DNA of 64,000 nt from Bacillota bacterium (GTDB lineage: Bacteria; Bacillota; Sulfobacillia; JAIMAT01), in contig JAIMAT010000001.1 in NCBI GenBank assembly GCA_023511835.1, forward strand, positions 19,142 through 83,141, given 5' to 3'. A program made the position numbers and the translations under genes. Below the pieces are notes generated by a model. It saw only the letters and a list, made by a program, of their open reading frames with translations. It was not told the DNA's origin and searched no databases. Below, one piece after another: positions 8,370-25,898 of the stretch (positions within the stretch are counted from its first letter, which is position 1; each line of letters starts with the position of its first letter).

Positions 8370-10145
8370 ATGAGCCTGCCCGGTACAAGCCTTCCGGCCC
8401 CGGCGCCGCGACCCCTGCCGCGCTCGCGCCTCCTCTGGCTGGCCCTTCCGGTCGCGCTCCTCCTGGCGCTCGCCGCCTGGTTCCTCTGGCCCCTGCCGCG
8501 CCTCTCCTGGGCGCCCGCGGGGGGCGCCGTGCTGGTGGAGGGCAGCGAGCGTGCAGAGGTGCAACCCTGGGTGGCGGGGAGCGGGGCGGAGGCGAGCGTC
8601 TTCCTCCCCCTCGCCTGGGTGCGGAGCCGGCTCGACCCCCACATCGTCTGGGACTCGGCCGCGGGCCAGGTGATCGTCACCCGTCCGCAGGCGGTCTACC
8701 GGCTGCCGCTGCGCTTCCCCGTCGTCCTGCACGACGGCCAACCGTGGATGGAGCTGGATCTCCTCCGCCGCCTCTACGGCGCATCCCTGGCCTGGGTGCC
8801 GCAGAGCCGCACGGTGGTGGCGGATCCGGACGGCGCCGCCTACGCCGCCGGGCAGGTGCGCGGCTCGGGCGCGGTTCCGCTGCGGGCGCGACCGGCTTGG
8901 CGCAGCGGCAGTTACGCCAGCCTGGCGCCGGCCACTCCGCTGCTGGTGCTGCGGCAGTCCTCGCTCTGGCTTGAGGTGCGCGACCCCCAGGGCCGCCTGG
9001 GCTGGCTGCCCATCTGGCGCGTCCGCCTCGGCGGCGGCCGCGTCGCCCGGGCCGGTCAGCCGGCGGGGCTGGAGAGCCCGGCCGCGGCGGGAGGGAGCGG
9101 CGCGCCGCCCGCGCTGCCCGCCTGGGCCCCGCACCCGCCCGGGACGGCCGCCGGCGCCGCGGCCGGGCCGGTCATCCCGCCGGGAGAGCGGCTCAACCTG
9201 GCCTTCGCCATGGTGACGCAGAAGGATCTGCCCGCCCTGCCCCCGGCGGCGCCGCCCGGCGTCAACGTCCTGGCGCCCACCTGGTTCGAGCTGGCCGACG
9301 CCGGCGGCGACGTGGCCAACCTGGGCTCGGTGGTGGTGGTCAACGCCGCCCACCGGGCCGGCCTGCAGGTCTGGGCGGTGGTGACCAACAGTTTCGACCC
9401 GCTGCGGACCCACGCCTTCCTGGTCAGCGCGGCGGCACGGCAGCGCTTCGTCGCCGCCCTCCTCGACCTGGCGGCGCTCTACGGGCTGGACGGGATCAAC
9501 CTGGACTTCGAGAACGTGCAGGCGGCCGACGGCCCGCTCTACACCCAGCTGGTGCGCGAGCTGGTGCCTCCGGCCCACGCCCGGCGGCTGACCGTCAGCG
9601 TGGACGTGGCGGTGGTGGGCGGCTCCTCCAGCTGGTCGGCCTTCTTCCAGCACGCCGAGCTGGCGGCCAGCGCCGACTTCCTGGTACTGATGGCCTACGA
9701 CCAGTACTGGAGCGGCTCGCCGGTGGCCGGGCCGGTGGCGGCGGTCGACTGGACGGAGACGCAGCTGCGGCAGGCGCTGCAGAAGGTGCCGGCCGAGCGG
9801 CTGCTGCTGGGCGTCCCCTTCTACACCCGCGTCTGGACGGAGAGCCCGACGGCGGGCGGAGGCTCCAAGCTCACCTCGACGGCCGTCTCCACCGCCCAGG
9901 GCTGGAGGCTGGCGGCAGAACACGGCGTGCAGCCCGTCTACGACCCGCGCACCGGGGAGTACGTGGCCCGCTACCGGCAGGGGGCGGCGCAGGTCAGCCT
10001 CTGGCTGGACGGGCCGCGCACGTGGCAGGCGCGCGTCGACCTGGTCCGCCGCTACCGGCTGGCCGGCGTGGCCAGCTGGCAGATGGGCTTCGCCACGGGC
10101 GACCTCTGGAGCGCGCTCCAGGGCATTCAGCAGCCGCCTTACTGA
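8370..10145 (+). CDS. glycoside hydrolase family 18 protein (YaaH/YdhD-like spore peptidoglycan hydrolase type) with N-terminal membrane anchor and copper-amine-oxidase-N-like domain
   Basis: GH18 catalytic motif LDGINLDFENV (DxxDxDxE), MAYDQYW and GVPFYTRVW. N-terminal signal/TM LLWLALPVALLLALAAWFLW and a domain like ASVFLPLAWVRSRLDPHIVWDSAAGQVIVT. An alternative GTG start at 8340 sits directly against a GGGAGGGG run. Confidence 0.75.
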   Translation: MSLPGTSLPAPAPRPLPRSRLLWLALPVALLLALAAWFLWPLPRLSWAPAGGAVLVEGSERAEVQPWVAGSGAEASVFLPLAWVRSRLDPHIVWDSAAGQVIVTRPQAVYRLPLRFPVVLHDGQPWMELDLLRRLYGASLAWVPQSRTVVADPDGAAYAAGQVRGSGAVPLRARPAWRSGSYASLAPATPLLVLRQSSLWLEVRDPQGRLGWLPIWRVRLGGGRVARAGQPAGLESPAAAGGSGAPPALPAWAPHPPGTAAGAAAGPVIPPGERLNLAFAMVTQKDLPALPPAAPPGVNVLAPTWFELADAGGDVANLGSVVVVNAAHRAGLQVWAVVTNSFDPLRTHAFLVSAAARQRFVAALLDLAALYGLDGINLDFENVQAADGPLYTQLVRELVPPAHARRLTVSVDVAVVGGSSSWSAFFQHAELAASADFLVLMAYDQYWSGSPVAGPVAAVDWTETQLRQALQKVPAERLLLGVPFYTRVWTESPTAGGGSKLTSTAVSTAQGWRLAAEHGVQPVYDPRTGEYVARYRQGAAQVSLWLDGPRTWQARVDLVRRYRLAGVASWQMGFATGDLWSALQGIQQPPY

Positions 10146-10678
10146 GCGCGCGGGGACGACCCTGACCCGCCGTCCGGGGCGGCCGGGGAGCGCGGCGCCC
10201 CGGGGAGGAAGACGTGGATCCAGCCCTCCTCCTCGCGGCAGCGGAGCCCTGGAAGCCGCTCCCGGCCGCCGCCCAGGCGGACTCCTTCCGGCCCGTAGAG
10301 GGCGCCGCAGCCGGGGCAGCGGAAGAGCGATTCCTCCTGGCGCCACTGGACGAATCGTCGGTCGACGGGACAGACGCCCTCCAACGCCCGGGGAGGGCCG
10401 CCGGGTTCCGGGCGCAGCACGTAGACCGCCCGTCCCTCGGCCACCCGCAGGCGCGGCTCCGCCGTCACCGCCGCCGAGGGTAGGAGCCGCTCCCAGCGCC
10501 CGCCAGCCAGCGCCTCCGCCAGCTCCAGCGGCCGCTCCATCTCGCCGCCTGCTCCCGCCTGGCGGGTGAAGTTCTCCACCGTCTGGGCGAGCGAGGCCAG
10601 CAGGATGCGGAAGAAGTCCTTGCGGCCGGTGCGGCGCTGCAAAAGGTCGTCCGGCTCCCCTTCCCGCCGCTCCTCCAC
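10139..10678 (-). CDS. hypothetical Cys-containing protein (Rieske-like/zinc-ribbon-like C-terminal region)
   Basis: 179-aa ORF with GTG start. N-terminal ...LLQRRTGRKDFFRILLASLAQTV (RR-plus-hydrophobic stretch, Tat-like) and C-terminal VCPVDRRFVQWRQEESLFRCPGCGALYGPEG...LRCREEEGW. No confident family assignment. Confidence 0.35.
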   Translation of the reverse strand: MEERREGEPDDLLQRRTGRKDFFRILLASLAQTVENFTRQAGAGGEMERPLELAEALAGGRWERLLPSAAVTAEPRLRVAEGRAVYVLRPEPGGPPRALEGVCPVDRRFVQWRQEESLFRCPGCGALYGPEGVRLGGGRERLPGLRCREEEGWIHVFLPGAPRSPAAPDGGSGSSPRAQ

Positions 10679-16303: not shown

Positions 16304-18964
16304 CTAGGCCGTCCTGCGCAGCCGCTTCACCCCTTCCCACCAGAGGGTGGCAGCCGCCGCCGCCGCGCCCGCCACCAGGAGGCCGCGCGCCTCCAGCGGC
16401 GCGGTCCCCAGCGCCGGTCGCAGGGAGGGGACGTAGAGGCCGGCGGCCAGGAGCAGAAGTGTTCCCGCCGCCAGCACCCAGCGGCTCCGGCGACCGGCGG
16501 GATTCTCCCCGGCGGGTCCGGCGCCGTCGGACGGCCGCCCCAGCAGGCCGGCGAGAAGCGGACGCCGCTCCGAGCTCATGCTCAGGACCAGCAGCACGTT
16601 CCCCAGGAGGAGCGTCGCCAGCCCCATGGAGCGGGCCGTCGCCTCGCCCAGGCCCTGGCGGAGCGCCACCAGGTCGACCAGGAGCGTCGCCGCCAGCAGC
16701 GTACCGCCCAGGGCGAGCGCCTGGCCGAGCAGCCTCGCGTCCACCAGCGGGGCCTCCGGCGGGCGCGGCGGGCGGCGCATCAGGTCGGGCTCCTCGGGCG
16801 TCGTCTCGAAGACGATGGAGCAGGTGGGGTCGAGGATCAGCTCCAGGAGCGCGATGTGGATCGGCCAGAGAAAGAGCGGCAGGCCCAGCAGCGGGGCGAG
16901 GAGGGCCAGGCCGGCGATGGGCACGTGAATGGCCAGGATGTAGGCGACCGCCTTGCGGATGTTGTCGTAGATGTGGCGCCCCTGGCGAAGGGCGTTGGCG
17001 ATGGTGACGAAGTTGTCGTCCAGCAGCACCATGTCGGCCGCGTCGCGGGCCACGTCGGTCCCCCGGCCGCCCATGGCGACGCCGATGTCGGCCTCCTTCA
17101 GGGCCGGGGCGTCGTTGACGCCGTCGCCGGTCATGGCCACCACGCGGCCCTGCCGCCGCCAGCTGCGCACCAGGCGCAACTTCTGCCCGGGGACGGTGCG
17201 CGCGAAGATGCGCACCCCCGCGCCCCGGCCCGTGGTCAGGAGCCGGTCCAGCTCCTCCTCCCCGAACCGGTCCAACTCCTCGCCCGTCACCGTGCCCGCG
17301 CCGCCGTCCAGCCCCACCTCGCGGGCGATGGCCTCCGCCGTGGCGGGATGGTCGCCAGTGATCATCACCACGTCGACGCCGGCTCCGCGGCAGAGCGCCA
17401 CCGCCTCTCGGACGCCCTCCCGCGGCGGGTCGGCCAGCCCCAGCAGGCCCACCAGGCGGAGGCGGTGGTCCGCCAGGCGCTCGGGGTAGGGGGCCCGGAG
17501 GCCGGGGTCGCCCTCCTCCCCCCGCGCCACGGCCAGGACGCGCAGGCCGCGCGAGGCCAGCCCGCGCACCCGCTCCTCCGCCGCCTGCCGCTCCTCCGGC
17601 TCCAGCCGACAGAGGGGCAGGACGTTCTCGGGCGCTCCCTTGACCGCCAGCTCGCCCACACCCGAGGGATCCTCCCAGATGTGGCCCATCCAGCGCTCCT
17701 GGGGACGGAAGGGGTACTCGTGGACCAGGCGGCGCCCGGCGCGCACCGCCTCCGGCTCCAGGCCGCGCTCGCCGCTCCAGCGCCCGATGGCCAGGTCCAT
17801 GGGGTCATACGGCTCCTCCTCGCAGGCCAGGACGGCGGTCCGGACCAGCTCCTCCCAGGCCTCGGGGCCGGCCTCCTCGCCCGCCCGCCCGGACGCCTCG
17901 CCCCTCCCGCCCGCCACGGCCGCCGGCGCCCAGGCGACGGCGTCGCGGACGCTCATCCGGTTCTCGGTCAGCGTGCCCGTCTTGTCCACGCAGAGCAGGC
18001 TGACGGCGCCCAGCGTCTCCACCGAGGGCAGCCGGCGGACCAGCGCCTTCTGCCGGGAGAGGCGCCAGGCCCCCAGGGAGAGAAAGACGGTCAGCACCAC
18101 CGGGAACTCCTCGGGGATCATGGCCATGGCCAGGGAGATGCCGGCCAGGAGCGCCTCCGTCCAGGCCCTGCCCGAGCCGGCGCGAACCGCCTCCCAGGCC
18201 ACCAGCCCCCCCACTGCCAGGCAGAGCACCGCGCCCACCAGGAAGAACTGCCGCACCAGCGAGCGGATCTGCCGCTGCAGCGGGGTGGGATGCTCCTCCA
18301 CCGAGGCGATGAGGCGGCCGATCTCGCCCAGCCGGCTGCGCTCCCCCGTCGCCTCCACCTCGCCCCATCCCTGCCCCTGCAGGACGACCGTGCCGGCGTA
18401 GCAGGCGTCGCCCGCCGCCTTCCAGACCGGCTCCGACTCGCCGGTCAGCATGGACTCGTCCACGGAGAGGTCGGCGACGGAGGAGAGCCGGACGTCCGCC
18501 GGGATCCTCTCGCCCTCGGTGAGGGCCAGGAAGTCGCCCGGCACCACCTCGCGGGCCGGGATCCACTCCCAGCGGCCGTCGCGCAGGACGCGCGCGCGCG
18601 GCGCCGCCAGCTCCCGCAGCGAATCGAGCGCGCGCTCGGTCCGCCACTCCTGCACCACCGTGATGGCCACCACCGCCACCACGAAGGCCAGCATGGTCAG
18701 GCCCTCGCCCGTGTCGCCCAGAAAGAAGTAGACCGAGGCGGTGATGAGGAGCAGGAAGAACATGGGTTCGCGCAGCGCGTCGAGCAGCCGCCGCCAGCCG
18801 CTCTTCCTGCGCTCGCGGGCCACCTCGTTGGGGCCCCAGCGGCGCAGCCGCCGCGCCGCTTCGTCGCTGGCGAGCCCGGCCTGACCGGCGGGAAGGCCCT
18901 CCCTGCCCCCGGGCTCGGCCCTTCCCTCCGGCTGACTCCACGACTCTTGGCGGGACAGATCCAA
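16304..18964 (-). CDS. P-type cation-transporting ATPase, P2 (Ca2+/Mg2+ pump-like) type
   Basis: TGES (SVDESMLTGESEPV), DKTGTLTEN, MITGDHPATA, GDGVNDAPALKEADIGVAMG, and TM4 IPEEFPVVLTV (PEGL-type, not the CPC of heavy-metal P1B pumps); 10-TM layout. TTG start at 18964 with RBS GGGGGAG. Confidence 0.85.
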   Translation of the reverse strand: MDLSRQESWSQPEGRAEPGGREGLPAGQAGLASDEAARRLRRWGPNEVARERRKSGWRRLLDALREPMFFLLLITASVYFFLGDTGEGLTMLAFVVAVVAITVVQEWRTERALDSLRELAAPRARVLRDGRWEWIPAREVVPGDFLALTEGERIPADVRLSSVADLSVDESMLTGESEPVWKAAGDACYAGTVVLQGQGWGEVEATGERSRLGEIGRLIASVEEHPTPLQRQIRSLVRQFFLVGAVLCLAVGGLVAWEAVRAGSGRAWTEALLAGISLAMAMIPEEFPVVLTVFLSLGAWRLSRQKALVRRLPSVETLGAVSLLCVDKTGTLTENRMSVRDAVAWAPAAVAGGRGEASGRAGEEAGPEAWEELVRTAVLACEEEPYDPMDLAIGRWSGERGLEPEAVRAGRRLVHEYPFRPQERWMGHIWEDPSGVGELAVKGAPENVLPLCRLEPEERQAAEERVRGLASRGLRVLAVARGEEGDPGLRAPYPERLADHRLRLVGLLGLADPPREGVREAVALCRGAGVDVVMITGDHPATAEAIAREVGLDGGAGTVTGEELDRFGEEELDRLLTTGRGAGVRIFARTVPGQKLRLVRSWRRQGRVVAMTGDGVNDAPALKEADIGVAMGGRGTDVARDAADMVLLDDNFVTIANALRQGRHIYDNIRKAVAYILAIHVPIAGLALLAPLLGLPLFLWPIHIALLELILDPTCSIVFETTPEEPDLMRRPPRPPEAPLVDARLLGQALALGGTLLAATLLVDLVALRQGLGEATARSMGLATLLLGNVLLVLSMSSERRPLLAGLLGRPSDGAGPAGENPAGRRSRWVLAAGTLLLLAAGLYVPSLRPALGTAPLEARGLLVAGAAAAAATLWWEGVKRLRRTA

Positions 18965-19002
18965 GGCGCTCCCCCGATTCTCTGCAGTCTCGGCGAAAGG
19001 AA

Positions 19003-19019
19003 GCGTACACGAGGTACGC
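19003..19019. promoter_or_regulatory. perfect inverted repeat GCGTAC-ACGAG-GTACGC, candidate MerR-type operator (mer-box-like)
   Basis: Read directly from the sequence; lies 39 nt upstream of the ATPase TTG start and ~150 nt upstream of merR. The CGTAC/GTACG half-sites resemble the Tn501 mer operator TCCGTAC-N4-GTACGGA. Confidence 0.5.
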
Positions 19020-19170
19020 CGTCACCATTACCACGAGCGGCGGCGCGGAGCAACTCTTTTTGAAAGTGAATTTCGTTTCGCAGATTCGGCCGCCGCGGTA
19101 GGGTAGATTCGAGCGGCGGGGGCGGCCGCAGCCCATCCGGGGGAGCGGCCGCCCGTCAGGGGGTCTTGGG

Positions 19171-19623
19171 ATGCGGATGCGCATCGGTCAGCTGGCGGCC
19201 CAGGCCCGACTTTCCGTGGACGGCCTGCGCTATTACGAGCAGCTCGGCCTGCTGGCGCCACGCGAGCGGAGTGAGGCCGGCTATCGCCTCTACGACGAGG
19301 AGGCGCTGGAGCGGCTTCGCTTCATCCGCCGCGCCCAGGAGCTGGGCCTCCGCCTGCAGGAGATCCGCGAGATCCTGGAGATCCGGGCCGGCGGACGCCC
19401 GCCCTGCCGCCACGTGCGCGACCTCCTGGCGCGGCGCCTGGGCGAGGTGGAGGCTCGCCTGGCCGAGCTGGAGCGGCTGCGCGACGGGCTCCGGAGCCGC
19501 CTCGAATGGGCGGAGGCGCACCCGGATCCGCGCTGCGACGAGCGCGAGGTCTGCGTCTACCTCGGCCCGCCGGCGCCCGCGGGGGGCGCGCCCGGGCGCG
19601 GCGGGCGGAAGCGCCTCCCCTAG
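19171..19623 (+). CDS. merR: MerR-family heavy-metal-responsive transcriptional regulator
   Basis: MRIGQLAAQARLSVDGLRYYEQLGLLAPRERSEAGYRLYDEEALERLRFIRRAQELGLRLQEIREILE (HTH plus coiled-coil dimerisation helix). Three Cys at about positions 79, 122 and 128 (CRHV...PRCDEREVC), the metal-binding pattern of MerR/ZntR/CadR-type sensors. Confidence 0.8.
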   Translation: MRMRIGQLAAQARLSVDGLRYYEQLGLLAPRERSEAGYRLYDEEALERLRFIRRAQELGLRLQEIREILEIRAGGRPPCRHVRDLLARRLGEVEARLAELERLRDGLRSRLEWAEAHPDPRCDEREVCVYLGPPAPAGGAPGRGGRKRLP

Positions 19624-19663
19624 CCGCGACCCGCCCCGGTCCGCCGGAAGCCGCCCGCCCGCC

Positions 19664-21418
19664 TCAGCCGGCGCAGCAGGAGAGGCGGCTCACTTCCTGG
19701 TCGAAGGCGAGGGCGGCCAAGCGGAGCCCCTCGCCCATGGTCAGGTAGGGCGCCAGGCTCTCGGCCAGGTCGGCCACCGTCAGACCGCCGCGGAGCGCCA
19801 GCGCCGCGGCGTAGATCACCTCGCCCGCCTCCTCGGCCAGCAGGTGGGCGCCCAGGAGGCGCCCGCCGGAGGCGTCGGCCACCAGCTTGTAAAGGCCGCG
19901 CGCGGCGCCGTTGACGCGCGCGCGCGCCAGCGCCTCCGCGGGCAGGACGGCGCTTCGCACCGGGTAGCCGGCCTCTCGGGCCCTGGCCTCGGTCAGGCCG
20001 ACGCTGGCCACGGCGGGCCGCGTGAAGATGACCGAGGGGACCAGGCTCAGGTCCAGGTCGCGCGCGCCGAGCCCGAGGGCGTTCTCCGCCGCCAGCTTCC
20101 CCTCGTGGGCGGCCACGTAGACGTACTGCGGGCCGCCGGTGACGTCGCCGGCCGCGAAGACGGCCGGATTCGTGCTGCGCAGGCGGCCGTCCACGGCCAC
20201 CCCGCCTCCCGGCGCCAGCGCCACGCCCGCGCGCTCCAGCGCCAGCGCCTCGGTGGCGGGGCGGCGGCCCGTGGCCACCAGCACTTCCTCCGCCTCCACG
20301 GCGCCGGGCTGGCCGGAGGCGTCGCGATAGCGGACGAGCCGCCCGGCGGCGGTGCGCTCGACGCGTTCGGGACGGACGCCGGCGAGGAGGCGGATCCCCT
20401 GCTCCTCCAGAAGTTGTCGCAACGCCTCGCCGATCTCGGGCTCATGGCGCGGGAGGAGACGCGGACCGCGCTGCATCAGCGTCACCTCGGCCCCCAGGCG
20501 GGCCAAGAACTGGCCCAGTTCCAGCGCCACGTAACCCGCGCCCAGCACCGCCACGCTCCGGGGCAGCCGGCCGAGGGCCAGGACCTCGCTGCTGGTGAGG
20601 TAGCCGGCCTCCTCCAGCCCCGGCAGCGGAGGCACGGCGGGTACGGCCCCGGTGGCCACCAGGAAGCGCTCCCCCTCCAGCACGCGCTCCCCTTCCGGGC
20701 CCCGGACCCGGACGCGGCCCCCGTCGAGGAAGGAAGCCTCGCCCTCCACCATCTCCCAGCCGTACTCCGCGATCAGGTCGGTGTACTTCTCCCGGCGCAG
20801 CCCCTCCACCAGCGCCTCCTTGCCGGCCATCAGCGCCGGCAGGTCGACGGCCTCGGCGCGCGTCCCGAGCCCCGGGTAGCCGCCCTGGCCGGCCAGATCG
20901 TGGATCTCGCTGGCGCGGAGGAGGTACTTGGAGGGGACGCAGCCCACGTTGACGCAGGTGCCGCCCACGGTGGCGCGCTCGACCATGGCCACGCGCGCGC
21001 CGGCCTGGCTGGCGCGGATGGCCGCCGCGAAGGCGGCGCTGCCCGAGCCCAGGATGACCAGGTCGTAGCGCCCGCCGCCGCCCGGCCCGCCCCCGCCCGG
21101 CTTTCCGTGCCCCCGCCGGTCCGTCGGCACCGGTTCGGCTTCCTCCAGCTCGACCAGCTCGCCCGCGCGGTAGCCGGCGGCGGCGACCGCCTCCCCCAGC
21201 CGCGCCGGATCGGGCCGGCCGGCGTACAAGAAGAGCGCCTCGCCGCGGCGGAAGTCGGCGCTCACCTCCTCGGCGCCTGCCGAGCGCAGCGCCTCGGCCA
21301 CATGCCGCTCGCAACCGGTGCAGGTCATGCCGTCGACGCGCAGGCGGAAACGCCGCCGTTCCGCAGCGCTCCTGCCGTCCCCGGGCGCGTCGAGGCGGCC
21401 CTCTTCCCAGCCGTTCAT
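19664..21418 (-). CDS. merA: mercuric reductase MerA with N-terminal HMA (NmerA) domain
   Basis: N-terminal GMTCTGCERHV (HMA metal-binding motif), FAD/NAD disulfide oxidoreductase core with redox-active GGTCVNVGCVPSK, and C-terminal ...SRLSCCAG (vicinal Cys pair ending CCAG as in Tn501 MerA). Start chosen at MNGWEEGR (RBS GGGGAGG 9 nt upstream); an upstream in-frame ATG at 21457 is the alternative. Confidence 0.9.
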   Translation of the reverse strand: MNGWEEGRLDAPGDGRSAAERRRFRLRVDGMTCTGCERHVAEALRSAGAEEVSADFRRGEALFLYAGRPDPARLGEAVAAAGYRAGELVELEEAEPVPTDRRGHGKPGGGGPGGGGRYDLVILGSGSAAFAAAIRASQAGARVAMVERATVGGTCVNVGCVPSKYLLRASEIHDLAGQGGYPGLGTRAEAVDLPALMAGKEALVEGLRREKYTDLIAEYGWEMVEGEASFLDGGRVRVRGPEGERVLEGERFLVATGAVPAVPPLPGLEEAGYLTSSEVLALGRLPRSVAVLGAGYVALELGQFLARLGAEVTLMQRGPRLLPRHEPEIGEALRQLLEEQGIRLLAGVRPERVERTAAGRLVRYRDASGQPGAVEAEEVLVATGRRPATEALALERAGVALAPGGGVAVDGRLRSTNPAVFAAGDVTGGPQYVYVAAHEGKLAAENALGLGARDLDLSLVPSVIFTRPAVASVGLTEARAREAGYPVRSAVLPAEALARARVNGAARGLYKLVADASGGRLLGAHLLAEEAGEVIYAAALALRGGLTVADLAESLAPYLTMGEGLRLAALAFDQEVSRLSCCAG

Positions 21419-21450
21419 GCGATCACGCCTCCCCGCTGTGGTACACTCGC

Positions 21451-21482
21451 ATTCCACACCCTGGAGCCCGCTCCGGAGTCAA
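21451..21482 (-). promoter_or_regulatory. candidate merA promoter: TTGACT - 20 bp - TGGAAT with a dyad inside the spacer
   Basis: Minus-strand reading cTTGACTccggagcgggctccagggtgTGGAATgcg...GGGGAGG..ATG. The -35 is identical to the Tn501 mer -35; a 19-20-bp spacer is the MerR-promoter hallmark. The spacer contains the inverted repeat GGAGC-GG-GCTCC. Confidence 0.4.
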
Positions 21483-21511
21483 GAGGGCCGGCGGGAGGCG
21501 AAGCGGCGAAA

Positions 21512-22018
21512 ATGGAGGAATATGTGGTTTACACCGACGGCGCCTGCTCGAACAACCAGGCCCCCGGCGGCCAGCCCGGCGGCTGGGCGGCCGTCTTCCG
21601 GGACGGCACCTGCCTGAGCGGCGGCGACCCCGCCACCACCAACAACCGCATGGAGCTGACGGCGGTGATCGAGGCGCTGCGCCATACGCCGCCCGGCAGC
21701 TCCGTCGCCGTCTGGAGCGACTCGGCCTACGTGGTCAACGCCTTCCTGCAGGACTGGTTCTCGGGCTGGGAGCGCCGCGGCTGGCGGAACAGCCGCGGGC
21801 AGCCGGTGGAGAACCAGGACCTCTGGCGCGAGCTGCTGCGCCTAGTGCGCGAGCGGCGCGTCACCTGGCACAAGGTGAGCGGGCACAGCGGCGACCCGCT
21901 CAACGAGAAGGCGGACCGGCTGGCCGTGGCCGCCATCCCCCGGCCGGCTGCGAGGGCGGCCGCTCCGGGCGGAGGGCCGGCCGGAGCCGGCGGCACCGGG
22001 GCGGCGCGACCGGCCTGA
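21512..22018 (+). CDS. rnhA: ribonuclease HI
   Basis: MEEYVVYTDGACSNNQ...GGWAAV...TNNRMELTAVIEAL...AVWSDSAYVVNAF..W...WHKVSGHSGDPLNEKADRLA: RNase H DEDD residues and conserved motifs. Confidence 0.85.
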   Translation: MEEYVVYTDGACSNNQAPGGQPGGWAAVFRDGTCLSGGDPATTNNRMELTAVIEALRHTPPGSSVAVWSDSAYVVNAFLQDWFSGWERRGWRNSRGQPVENQDLWRELLRLVRERRVTWHKVSGHSGDPLNEKADRLAVAAIPRPAARAAAPGGGPAGAGGTGAARPA

Positions 22019-22099: not shown

Positions 22100-23278
22100 T
22101 CATTCGTAGCGGAGCGCCTCCACCGGATCCAGCGCCGCCGCCCGCATGGCCGGGTAGACGCCGAAGAAGAGGCCGACGGCCGCCGAGAAGACGAAGGCGC
22201 CGACGATGGCACTCCAGGCGACCACCGGTGGGAAGTGCATCAGCCGGTCGATGACCAGCGAGCCGGCCACGCCCACGGCCATGCCGATGACGCCGCCCGC
22301 CAGGCTGAGGACGGCCGACTCGGTCAGGAACTGCACCAGGATGTTGCGGCGCGTCGCGCCCAGCGCCTTGCGGATGCCGATCTCGCGCGTCCGCTCGCTC
22401 ACCGTCACCAGCATGATGTTCATGATGCCGATGCCGCCCACCACCAGCGAGATGGCCGCGATGGCCGCCAGCATCATGGTCAGCGTCTGCGTCGCCGTCC
22501 CCAGCGCGGAGAGCAGCTGCGTCTGGTTGAAGACGCGGACCGGGGGCTCGCTCTCGCCCGGCTGCCCGTGCTCCAGGTCCATCACGGTGGCGATGTGGTT
22601 GGCGGCCAGCTGGGCGTCCTGCGCGCTCCGCGCCTGGGCCATGATCTGGTTGACGCGGTTGGTGCCGGCGATCTGCTGGGCCAGGCTGAGCGGCAGAAAG
22701 ACCACGTCGTCGTTGTTCTGGCCGAAGCTGGAACCGATGGGCGCCAGCTCGCCCACCACCGTCACCTCGGTGCCGTTCACCTCCAGGCTCTGGCCGATCA
22801 CCGGCCCGCCCCCGAAAAGCTCCTGGGCCACCGTCTGGCCGATGACCGCCACGGGCAGGCGGTAGCTCTCGTCCAGCGGCTGGAGGAAGCGCCCCTGCGC
22901 CATCTTCAGGTCCCGGATGGTCGCGTACTGCGGCCAGGTCCCCTCCACCGTCGTCGAGTAGCTGGCCCGCCCCCTGGCGACGGTGCCGTTAGGCACGTTG
23001 AGCACCGGCACGGCGGCGGTGATGGTGGGCACCCGCTGCTCCAGCTCCTGCGCATCGGCGGCGGTCAGCTGCACGCCGCCCCCGCCCGTCACCGAGATCA
23101 GGTTGGAGCCCAGCCCCTCCAGCTGGGAGGTGACCGAGGAAGAGGCGCCCTGTCCCACCGAGACCAGCAGGATGACGGCCGTCACCCCGATGATGATGCC
23201 GAGCATGGTCAGGAAGGTGCGCAGCTTGTTCTCCCCGATGCGCAGCACGGCATCCCAGACGCCCTCGAGCCCGTTCAC
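22100..23278 (-). CDS. ABC transporter permease, FtsX/MacB family (YknZ-like)
   Basis: 392 aa. N-terminal TM ([21 protein letters not shown]), large extracytoplasmic domain, C-terminal 3 TM with [22 protein letters not shown] overlaps the upstream stop (ATGA). Confidence 0.85.
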
Positions 23279-23994
23279 GCTCCGCCTCCCTCCCCCGTCC
23301 CGGCGCCGGCGGCCGCCGGCACGCGCTCGTCGGCCACCAGCCGCCCGTCCCGGATGCGCAGCTGGCGCCGGGCGCGCGCGGCCACGGCGGCGTCGTGGGT
23401 GACCAGGATGACGGTCATCCCCTCGCGGTTGAGCCGCTCGAAGAGCTCGAGCACCTCTGCCCCGGCGACGCTGTCCAGGTTGCCCGTCGGCTCGTCGGCC
23501 AGAACGATGGCGGGCTCGGTGACCAGCGCCCGGGCGATGGCGACCCGCTGCTCCTGCCCGCCGGAGAGCTCGGTGGGCCGATGGTCCATCCGCTCGGCCA
23601 GGCCCACCGCCGCCAGAGCCGCCTCCGCGCGCGCCCGCCGCTGGCGCGCCGGCACGCCGGCGTAAAGGAGCGGCAGCTCCACGTTCTGGCGGGCGGTGAG
23701 GCGGGGGAGCAGATTGAACTGCTGGAAGACGAAGCCGATGCGCCGGTTGCGGATGCGCGCCAACTCCTCGTCGCTCCGGTCATGGACGGGGGTGCCGTCC
23801 AGCCGATAGACGCCCGAGGTGGGCCGGTCGAGGGCGCCCAGGATGTGCATGAGCGTCGACTTGCCCGAGCCCGAGGGGCCGGTGAGCGCCACGAACTCGC
23901 CCTTCTCCACGGCGAAGGAGACGCCGCGCAGCGCGTGGACGTCCACACCGCCGCGGTGGTAGACCTTCCTCACGTCCTCGACCTCGATGATCAC
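23275..23994 (-). CDS. ABC transporter ATP-binding protein (MacB/LolD-type; YknY-like)
   Basis: Walker [11 protein letters not shown]-loop, signature [15 protein letters not shown], Walker [14 protein letters not shown]-loop VTHD. GTG start overlaps the adaptor stop (GTGA), with GGGAGG RBS 9 nt upstream. Confidence 0.9.
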
Positions 23995-25898
23995 TGGCCG
24001 GCGCCTCCCGTGTTCCCACCGCCCCCGCCGGCTCCTCCGCCGAAGCCGCCGCCCTGGCCGCCGCGGGTGTTGGCCCGCGTACCTCCGCCCGCTCCGCCGC
24101 GGTCGAAGCCGCCGCCGAAGCCGCCAAAGGCGCGGCCGCCCGGCCCGGCGCCGAAGCCGAAGGGCCGGAAGCCCGCCTGCGGCGTCCCGCCGTTGGAGGA
24201 AGCCTGGCTGGTGGCCACGATCACCTGCTCGCCCTCGTTGAGGCCGGAGACGATCTCGGTCCAGGCTGGCGTCACCACGCCCAGCTGCACCACCCTGCGC
24301 ACCGGCTGCCCGTTCTGCAGCACCTGCACCAGCCCGCGCCCGTTGGGCGTGGCGCTCAGCCCGCCGCTGGGCTGGACCACCGCCTCCGTGGGGACGCGGA
24401 GCACGTTCTGCCGCTGGGTGACCACGATCTGGGCGTGACCGGTCATCCCGGGCAGGAGCCCCTCGGGCTGCTGGACGGCGATCCAGACCGGGAAGGTGGC
24501 CACCCCGTTCTGCGAGGTCGCCTGCCCGGCGATCTCGGTGACCGTGCCCTGGAAGAACTTGCCCGGGAAGGCGTCGACGGTGACGGTCGCCGCCTGGCCC
24601 ACGTGCACCTGGCCGATGTCCAGCTCGTTGACGCTGGCCTCCAGGTCCATGTCGCCCTGCGGTCGGATGGTGAGGAGCCCGCCCGAGCCCGCCTGGGCGG
24701 CGGCGGAGCCCGAGCCGCCCACGCCGCCGGCCCCGACGGTCTCCCCCACCTGCACGGCGACGTCGGTGACGACGCCGTCCACCGGCGCCACCACGTGCAG
24801 CTTCGCCTGCTGGTCCAGGTCCGCCTGGAGCTGCAACTGGTCCGTCTGCGCCTTGAGACGGGCCTGGCTCACCTGGGTGGCGTCGGCGGGGTTGGCCTCG
24901 AGCGAGAGGAGCCGCTGGCCGGCGTTCACCCACTGGTTGGCGCTGACCAGGACGGTCCCCACCGTCCAGGAGCTGCCCGTCTGCGGCGCCAGCACCTGGA
25001 CCGGGTCGTTGTCGGCGAAGCTTCCCTGCTCCACCAGCGGCCCCTGGGCCGTCTGGATCGTCGCCTGGCCCGTCATCCCGGCCTGCAGCAAGCCCGGGTT
25101 GGTCAGGCGCAGCTTGACGGTGTAGAGGATGGTCTGCGAGCCGGGGGTCCCCGTCCGGTCCACGCTCACCACCGTGGCCGGGATCGGGTCGGGGGCGAAG
25201 TTGTCGGCCACCACCGTCGCCTTCTGGCCGGGCTGGATGCGCTCCATGTCCGGCTGGATCACCTGGCTCTCAAAGAGGATCGTCCGGTCGTCCACCAGGT
25301 TCGCCAGCACCGACTGGGGCTTCACCTGCTGGTTGGCCGAGACGTTGAGCGACTGGAGGCGCCCGGCCGCCGGCGCCGTCACCCAGATCTCGCCCGGCAG
25401 CGTGGCCGACATGGCCTGGCTCGGCGGCACGTTCAGCAGGTTTCCCAGCGAGACCAGGTCCTGCTGGACCTGGATCTGGTCCCTCTGGACGGCCATGTCC
25501 AGGTTCGAGTCGCTCAGGTCGACCAGCGGATCGCCCTTATGCACGGTCTGGCCGTTCTGGACGTGAACGGCGGTCACCACCATCTGCCCGCTCACCTGGG
25601 GCGGACTGACGGTGACCGCGTTCGGGCTGGCCAGCGTGCCGTCCGCCTGCACCGTCACCGTGATGTCGCCGCGGCTGGCCGGCACGGTGGTGTAGCGGAT
25701 GTCCGACTGGGCGCTCAGAGTCCGGGCGCGGAGATACCACCCGGCTCCGCCCACCACCGCCAGCACGATCACCGCGGCCAGCGCCCACTTCCACCAGCTG
25801 CCCTTGCGCACGGAGCTCCCCCCACCCTGCCTCTGCGATTCCACATCAATCCAGCGGAATGATAGTCTCGCTCCCGGGATCCAACCTGAGAGGCGCAT
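23991..25898 (-). CDS. HlyD/MacA-family periplasmic adaptor (membrane-fusion protein; YknX-like) with long Gly-rich C-terminal tail
   Basis: N-terminal anchor [22 protein letters not shown], coiled-coil region (...[14 protein letters not shown]...), beta-barrel/lipoyl-like segments, and a C-terminal ~60-aa tail [55 protein letters not shown]. Confidence 0.8.

Follow-up and report, generated by a model that had tools for sequence, protein, structure and literature searches.

A probable two-gene merR–merA mercury resistance cassette with a conserved MerR-type operator in a high-GC Bacillota genome

Mercury resistance (mer) genes of a minimal kind are found in a 64-kb stretch of a Bacillota genome (contig JAIMAT010000001.1; this whole stretch is called the window here, and its G+C content is ~75% throughout). 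Two genes, merR for a heavy-metal regulator of the MerR family and merA for a mercuric reductase, face each other tail-to-tail. Very probably they form a minimal chromosomal cassette for Hg(II) resistance, in which MerR acts in trans on a promoter upstream of merA (PmerA) and the genes on either side, for a P2-type cation ATPase and for RNase HI (rnhA), are only flanking. According to the listing of open reading frames (ORFs) and the profile searches, the gene order is ATPase (minus strand), merR (plus), merA (minus) and rnhA (plus). The stop codon of merR is at 19621-19623 and that of merA at 19664-19666, which leaves the 40 bp between convergent genes that an initial annotation of this DNA had described.

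Judged from its sequence, merA encodes a genuine mercuric reductase, with a predicted NADPH-dependent reduction of Hg(II). The protein scores above the equivalog cut-off of TIGR02053 (559.6 compared with 454.45 bits), and it aligns end to end with MerA proteins of solved structure, namely 5x1y (E 2.5e-162) and the Tn501 core 1zk7. In the alignment to these two, the GMTCTGC and CVNVGC motifs, the active-site tyrosines in KY and PYLTM, and the C-terminal CCAG are all kept. The score and the conserved cysteine and tyrosine motifs bear out the earlier description of a bona fide MerA. A Shine-Dalgarno sequence, GGGGAGG, lies ahead of the ATG start codon at 21418.

Within 93 bp 5' of this start codon lies PmerA, which on the minus strand reads TTGACT-CCGGAGCGGGCTCCAGGGTG-TGGAAT. 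The -35 hexamer TTGACT is at 21482..21477 and the -10 hexamer TGGAAT at 21456..21451, the spacer is 20 bp long and holds a 9-4-9 dyad, ACTCCGGAG-CGGG-CTCCAGGGT (21479..21458), and transcription of merA is predicted to start at about 21444. Promoters controlled by the MerR family have a strong palindrome within a spacer of 19 or 20 bp; for firmicute MerR and for ZntR the palindrome is 22 bp long and the spacer 20 bp, with ACTCTGGAGTCGACTCCAGAGT as the consensus for ZntR (PMC1526738). The hexamers of PmerA match the consensus at 9 of 12 positions at the 20-bp spacing. The site is unique in the window when up to three mismatches are allowed, with a chance expectation of 0. A matrix was built from six sites in relatives, leaving out the window's own site; with this clade matrix the site upstream of merA scores 22.8 bits, more than any other of the ~128,000 positions on the two strands, where the runner-up scores 5.4. 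The initial annotation had stated that merR cannot drive merA from a shared divergent promoter, and there is indeed no such promoter, but merA still has a conserved MerR-type promoter of its own. A scan for sigma-70 promoters, which included only spacers of 16-18 bp, found none in 18900..21600. An empty scan is to be expected of a genome so rich in GC and of a 20-bp spacer, and it speaks neither for nor against PmerA.

The pairing of this type of regulator with merA is found in other genomes as well. The closest homologues of the regulator are 81% and then 61-59% identical, and all of them adjoin merA. Among the loci examined where the regulator is at least 55% identical and where there is enough flanking sequence, merA is found beside it in every case (12/12). 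The gene orders include merR near HMA-merA in Meiothermus (P0003), merR-HMA-merA (P0005), merR-x-merA (P0006), and Cys_Met_Meta_PP-merR-HMA-merA (P0004), the last of which corresponds in gene order to the Thermus-type operon oah2-merR-HMA-merA. The 81% identical homologue (P0002) comes from a Bacillota metagenome-assembled genome (MAG), GCA_029961055.1, where the locus (L007) has the same tail-to-tail layout, merR→←merA, without the ATPase, and is flanked by short-chain dehydrogenase, TetR and acyl-CoA genes. When the window is compared with L007 by blastn, the alignment covers only 19176..21355, which is merR and merA (78% over 2214 nt), and the flanks are unrelated. That the pair and its operator are kept in a different genomic context argues for selection on merR and merA as a unit, and the two genes have probably been exchanged as a two-gene cassette.

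The operator and promoter are conserved in register at seven sites in six loci, the window included. The box TTGACC-yTGGAGC-N3-CTCCAGGGT-T-TAnnnT is found directly upstream of merA or HMA-merA in L007, L008, L009, L093 and L095, and in Meiothermus it is found upstream of merR too. In an exact-pattern scan of metagenome contigs, 72 further loci (L096-L167) were found to contain the box TTGACCYTGGAGC-N3-CTCCAGGGT, and in ~60 of these 72 a heavy-metal MerR gene abuts the box, either downstream of it or divergent from it. Those with the MerR gene downstream are likely to be autoregulated merR-first operons. Where the metagenome loci offer enough sequence and a MerR at least 55% identical, merA is just downstream of the box in all seven. 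Where the regulator at the box is of lower identity, the genes that follow it are for HMA proteins or P-type ATPases (L102, L123, L146, L154), and in L097, L117 and L138 merR is followed by a convergent gene for a MerA-like oxidoreductase (32-40% identical). The link with merA belongs to the regulator clade rather than to the box. As a usable rule, merA promoters are marked by the box TTGACC-yTGGAGC-N3-CTCCAGGGT-T when it occurs with a regulator of at least 55% identity, and this could aid the annotation of metagenomic mer loci and work on thermostable Hg biosensors.

It is worth noting that some of the relatives have additional small genes. In L009 (9019..9123), and also in L010-L012, a hydrophobic ORF of 34 amino acids with a C-terminal FPCCG overlaps the end of merA, and in L009 it is followed by AhpC/TSA-like and DsbD_TM-like genes (9205..10369) that have no counterpart in the window. 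These may be accessory genes for the handling of Hg. Translation of the small ORFs beside merA in L093 and L008 gave nothing consistent, and homologues of the accessory genes of Thermus-like loci were not found in the window by tblastn.

The regulator itself has three cysteines, Cys79, Cys122 and Cys128, which in a multiple alignment are all conserved across the close clade, and the clade shares the motif WAEAHPDPxCD-x4-CVYL. Among the structures in PDB, Bacillus MerR (4ua1) is the best match, with Cys79 aligned, and 5crl, CadR and CueR are also matched. The three cysteines align with the Hg ligands Cys79, Cys114 and Cys123 of Bacillus MerR. Together with the Pfam families this alignment supports the initial annotation, which had described a MerR-family sensor with a three-cysteine metal site. 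In profile searches of NCBIfam the highest scores come from ZntR, MerR and CadR; the regulator resembles ZntR, MerR, CadR and CueR about equally and does not reach the cut-off of any of them.

Put together, this points to a mechanism of the following kind. Expression of merR would be constitutive, from its own promoter somewhere within the 207 bp upstream of the gene; this promoter is seemingly not autoregulated, because the clade box is absent upstream of merR both in the window and in L007. The diffusible MerR dimer would bind the palindrome ACTCCGGAG-N4-CTCCAGGGT inside the over-long spacer of PmerA, and without Hg(II) the apo form would keep the promoter in a poor conformation. Binding of Hg(II), for which the alignment predicts a site made of Cys79 from one subunit and Cys122 and Cys128 from the other, would then under-twist the spacer and align the -35 and -10 hexamers, and merA would be transcribed. 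Activation by under-twisting is the established mechanism of the MerR family (PMC1526738). The resulting MerA, with its fused NmerA domain, would reduce cytoplasmic Hg(II) to volatile Hg(0).

In such a system Hg(II) would have to enter the cell without dedicated Mer transporters, as it does in Thermus thermophilus. The absence of merT, merP and merC from the surroundings was already noted in the initial annotation and holds over longer distances: no MerT, MerP or MerC Pfam family is recorded among the called genes from ~9 kb upstream to ~10 kb downstream, and tblastn with HMA and Tn501 MerT and MerP queries gave no further match in the window. The question of how Hg(II) reaches MerA had been raised there. 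It is not peculiar to this locus, since the mer operon of T. thermophilus, which has been studied by experiment, consists of merA, merR and oah2 only (PMC6445937). Early-branching lineages have simple mer operons, and that of Thermus is without a transporter (PMC6445937, PMC3466566). The features of the locus are collected in Table 1.

Table 1. Predicted genes and regulatory elements in and around the merR–merA cassette (window coordinates; a dot means no strand)
Feature	Position	Strand	Remarks
P2-type cation ATPase, 886 aa	16304..18964	-	Pfam Cation_ATPase_N, E1-E2_ATPase, Hydrolase, Cation_ATPase_C; no HMA
Dyad GCGTAC-ACGAG-GTACGC, ATPase–merR intergenic region	19003..19019	.	Judged a chance inverted repeat, not a MerR operator
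merR, heavy-metal MerR-family regulator, 150 aa	19171..19623	+	Pfam MerR_1, MerR-DNA-bind, MerR; possible alternative ATG start at 19177
merR–merA gap between convergent stops	19624..19663	.	40 bp
merA, mercuric reductase, 584 aa, fused N-terminal HMA (NmerA)	19664..21418	-	TIGR02053; Pfam HMA, Pyr_redox_2, Pyr_redox_dim
PmerA, predicted MerR-type promoter/operator	21451..21482	-	Conserved box, clade matrix
rnhA (RNase HI)	21524..22018	+	Pfam RNase_H, NCBIfam PRK00203; GTG start of the gene call, in-frame ATG at 21512

Several observations weigh against reading the locus as a mercury-responsive cassette. The regulator is below every NCBIfam metal-sensor cut-off (ZntR, MerR, CadR, CueR), and while the MerR model TIGR02051 gives 90.7 bits compared with a cut-off of 150.85, the ZntR models score higher, at 103.7 and 109.4 bits. 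The second and third cysteines are spaced C-x5-C, compared with C-x8-C in Bacillus MerR, and the second is 43 residues past Cys79, compared with 35 in the Bacillus MerR reference. Here the clade carries an insertion of eight residues ahead of the second cysteine (motif HPDPxCD-x4-CVYL). This insertion and the C-x5-C spacing probably explain why the score stays below the MerR equivalog cut-off, and TIGR02051 probably does not cover the Thermus-type clade. At the DNA level the -10 hexamer TGGAAT of PmerA is weak, the clade matrix finds no operator upstream of merR in the window, and the operator half-site resembles the ZntR box more closely than it does the mer boxes of the literature, which are 7-4-7 in proteobacteria (TCCGTAC-4-GTACGGA) and 9-4-9 in firmicutes (ACCGTGTAC-4-GTACAGGGT; PMC1526738). 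Boxes of the PmerA type also serve many heavy-metal MerR regulators of a non-mercury type, so the box indicates control by the MerR family and not specificity for Hg. Furthermore, the view is limited to 64 kb of the genome, whose remaining part may hold genes for mer transport or for a second paralogue of MerR.

Some of these points can be taken to mean that the regulator senses Zn(II), Cd(II), Pb(II) or a broad range of metals, and that the box upstream of merA belongs to a general heavy-metal regulon. The ZntR models are at the top in NCBIfam, the half-site ACTCCGGAG is like the ZntR consensus ACTCTGGAG (PMC1526738), elsewhere among the metagenome loci the same box stands before genes for HMA proteins and P-type ATPases, and the C-x5-C spacing is unlike that of characterised MerRs. 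However, all of the model scores are under their family cut-offs, the best solved relative is the Hg sensor MerR of Bacillus, and the three-cysteine pattern is typical of MerR. ZntR has the extra ligands Cys115 and His119, which are not apparent in the alignment of the regulator, an alignment that held no ZntR sequence. Moreover, the whole clade of at least 55% identity is tied to merA, and this includes the Thermus-type operon, whose merA confers Hg(II) resistance according to genetic studies (PMC6445937, PMC8261052). A sensor for other metals is thus improbable. Even less can be said for a merA that is expressed constitutively or under another regulator, with merR as a decaying remnant or acting elsewhere and the tail-to-tail layout as the scar of a rearrangement. 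Some early-branching lineages, Aquificae among them, are known to express merA constitutively (PMC3466566), and both the lack of an operator before merR and the weak -10 hexamer would fit it. In this case one has to account for a merR that is intact, with a conserved helix-turn-helix and conserved cysteine ligands, and for a tail-to-tail pair that is kept along with its operator in a second MAG, at 78% DNA identity and in a different context; we regard the idea as very improbable.

A further alternative, brought up in the initial annotation, is that the dyad GCGTAC-5-GTACGC lets MerR control the P2-type ATPase, with or without merA as a second target. The two genes are divergent and separated by an intergenic region of 207 bp, the dyad has a GTAC core as in both published mer boxes (PMC1526738), and GTGACG, which matches 4/6 of the -35 consensus, abuts it on the ATPase strand. 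The repeat exists as annotated, but a role as an operator has no support. Its centre has 5 nt instead of 4 and its arms only 6 bp, and a stretch of 261 bp contains 11 short inverted repeats, this one included. Averaged over the window, 207 bp of sequence contain 1.27 perfect 6-bp inverted repeats (gap of 3-8 nt), and at least one is present in 57% of segments of that length, so the dyad is no more than chance would give. There is no usable pair of hexamers around it: with a spacing of 19-21 bp on either strand the best -35/-10 pair reaches 6/12, compared with 9/12 at PmerA, and the best -10 reaches at most 2/6 on the ATPase strand and 3/6 on the merR strand. At 7/7 sites the clade box is of the CTGGAG type and not of the GTAC type, and no clade operator is found in the intergenic region, where the best matrix score is -4.5 bits compared with 22.8 upstream of merA. 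A MerR-type operator in this region was rejected, as the mismatch search, the clade matrix and the enumeration of hexamer pairs were all negative. The comparison of genomes goes the same way. The nearest relative has merR-merA without the ATPase, and DNA homology with it ends at 19176. In a scan of a genome collection, 80 loci with orthologues of the ATPase were found (37-62% identical; common in Clostridia, Limnochordia and Sphaerochaeta), and 77 of them have no MerR-like gene within 5 kb. One of the three that do (L046) has it ~740 bp upstream on the opposite strand, possibly divergent, and this single locus speaks for the ATPase as a target. The closest orthologue, from a Limnochordaceae MAG (L013, 62%), has neither a MerR gene within 5 kb nor a dyad of this type upstream. 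We therefore give control of the ATPase by MerR very little credence, and the same is true of a bolder version, in which the Thermus-type MerR clade uses a third kind of mer operator (ZntR-like ACCyTGGAG-N4-CTCCAGGGT, 20-bp spacer) and the regulator in addition moonlights on the ATPase through the GTAC dyad. Such moonlighting, if true, would link mercury stress to a pump for cations other than heavy metals, and that half would be truly new. The ATPase is an unrelated flanking gene outside the mer unit, and a false lead, the P2-type ATPase as a MerR target, is removed.

The classification of the ATPase as P2-type, with IPEEFP rather than CPC, agrees with its Pfam and NCBIfam matches, and a canonical heavy-metal architecture with CPC and HMA is not present. 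The motif in transmembrane segment 4 (TM4) is AMIPEEFP. Among the NCBIfam models those of P2-type score best (PMR1-type Ca, 488 bits compared with a cut-off of 798), but the protein reaches none of the equivalog cut-offs for Ca-, Mg-, H- and K-ATPases. Models of P1B pumps are far weaker (TIGR01525, 252 bits compared with a cut-off of 346), and the CPx motif and HMA domain of that class are missing. Its best solved relative is the Ca2+-ATPase LMCA1 of Listeria monocytogenes (E 1e-124), with which it has a P2A-like architecture and the TM4 Glu in common. It differs from LMCA1 in Ca-site residues, with His for Asn in TM5 (YILAIHVP) and LELILD for INLVND in TM6, where Glu and Leu replace two Asn, so neither the equivalog scores nor these residues are those of a P2A Ca2+-ATPase. 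No paper on a PEEFP motif of P-type ATPases came up in a literature search. No riboswitch (e.g. for Mg or Mn) or structured RNA is found in the ATPase leader, where the hairpin is not unusually stable (fold z-score of -0.98), and there are no Rfam matches at E<=1 in 18800..21700.

A few other observations concern the DNA between the genes. Just upstream of the merR start, at 19120..19154, is an inverted repeat (GGGCGGCCGCAGCCC / GGGGAGCGGCCGCCC) with 15-nt arms that are 87% complementary and a 5-nt loop, which is larger than the GTAC dyad. Possibly it forms a structure in the leader of merR, but it may also be no more than palindromic DNA rich in GC. The gap between merR and merA has no predicted intrinsic terminator and no unusual fold (z-score +0.31), and transcripts that read through it from merR would be antisense to the 3' end of merA. 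Tight tail-to-tail spacing of the two genes is also kept in L007.

On the other side of the cassette, rnhA was correctly described as divergent from merA, as confirmed by the RNase_H profile and the gene call. This adjacency is not conserved, and in L007 a TetR-family gene takes the place of rnhA. Between merA and rnhA (21419..21523), the -35 hexamer of PmerA is only 30-42 bp from the rnhA start, whether this is the GTG at 21524 or the ATG at 21512, and for this reason any rnhA promoter must overlap the region where MerR would bind. The arrangement mimics the classical merR/merT divergon with an unrelated gene; in L007 the TetR gene is ~430 bp away. Past rnhA, at 22100..25898 on the minus strand, follows a MacB-type tripartite efflux set, which has no visible tie to mer. 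Its parts are an FtsX/MacB permease, an ABC ATPase and a periplasmic adaptor whose tail is rich in Gly.

The merR–merA cassette can be compared with several known systems. In Tn501/Tn21 and in Bacillus RC607 there is likewise a three-cysteine activator of the MerR family and a palindrome in an over-long spacer (PMC1526738), and MerA likewise has NmerA, a redox-active CxxxxC and a C-terminal CC. The differences from the classical type are nevertheless clear. In Tn501/Tn21 merR is divergent from merTPAD, whereas in the window there are no shared or overlapping divergent promoters, no merD, and no uptake genes (merT/merP or merC/merF/merE). The half-site is of the type ACyCyGGAG and not TCCGTAC or ACCGTGTAC, the spacer has 20 bp as in firmicutes and ZntR compared with 19 bp in the classical operators, and the regulator does not reach the TIGR02051 cut-off. 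The operator of E. coli PzntA, which is bound by ZntR, is ACTCTGGAG-TCGA-CTCCAGAGT, a 22-bp palindrome in a 20-bp spacer (PMC1526738), and that of the window has almost the same architecture. Here the target is merA and not a P1B ATPase, and the regulator falls under both ZntR cut-offs and has a MerR-like three-cysteine site.

The closest known systems are the mer operon of Thermus thermophilus HB27 (oah2-merR-merA; L095 was matched to this operon by gene order alone) and the loci of Meiothermus. Their regulators belong to the same clade, are 57-61% identical and share HPDPxCD-x4-CVYL. The same operator box lies ahead of merA or HMA-merA, merT, merP and merC are missing, and the composition is equally minimal (PMC6445937). 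In contrast, merR and merA are co-directional there and tail-to-tail in the window, HMA is a separate small gene there and fused to MerA in the window, and no oah2 is adjacent to merR or merA in the window. Boyd and Barkay call the merR of Thermus "convergent" with merA (PMC3466566), which we read as co-directional and not as tail-to-tail, as merR and merA point the same way in the Thermus-type loci examined here. The tail-to-tail layout itself is found in L007, the same cassette with MerR 81% and MerA 73% identical, which also has the fused NmerA and the PmerA box with its 20-bp spacer, between entirely different flanks. The host, an uncultured high-GC member of the Bacillota whose nearest relatives, a Bacillota MAG and a Limnochordaceae MAG, suggest a place in the Limnochordia, thus shares a minimal transporter-less merR/merA system with Thermus and Meiothermus. 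Beyond annotation the significance of this is slight. The locus belongs with the transporter-less type that is already known from these genera.

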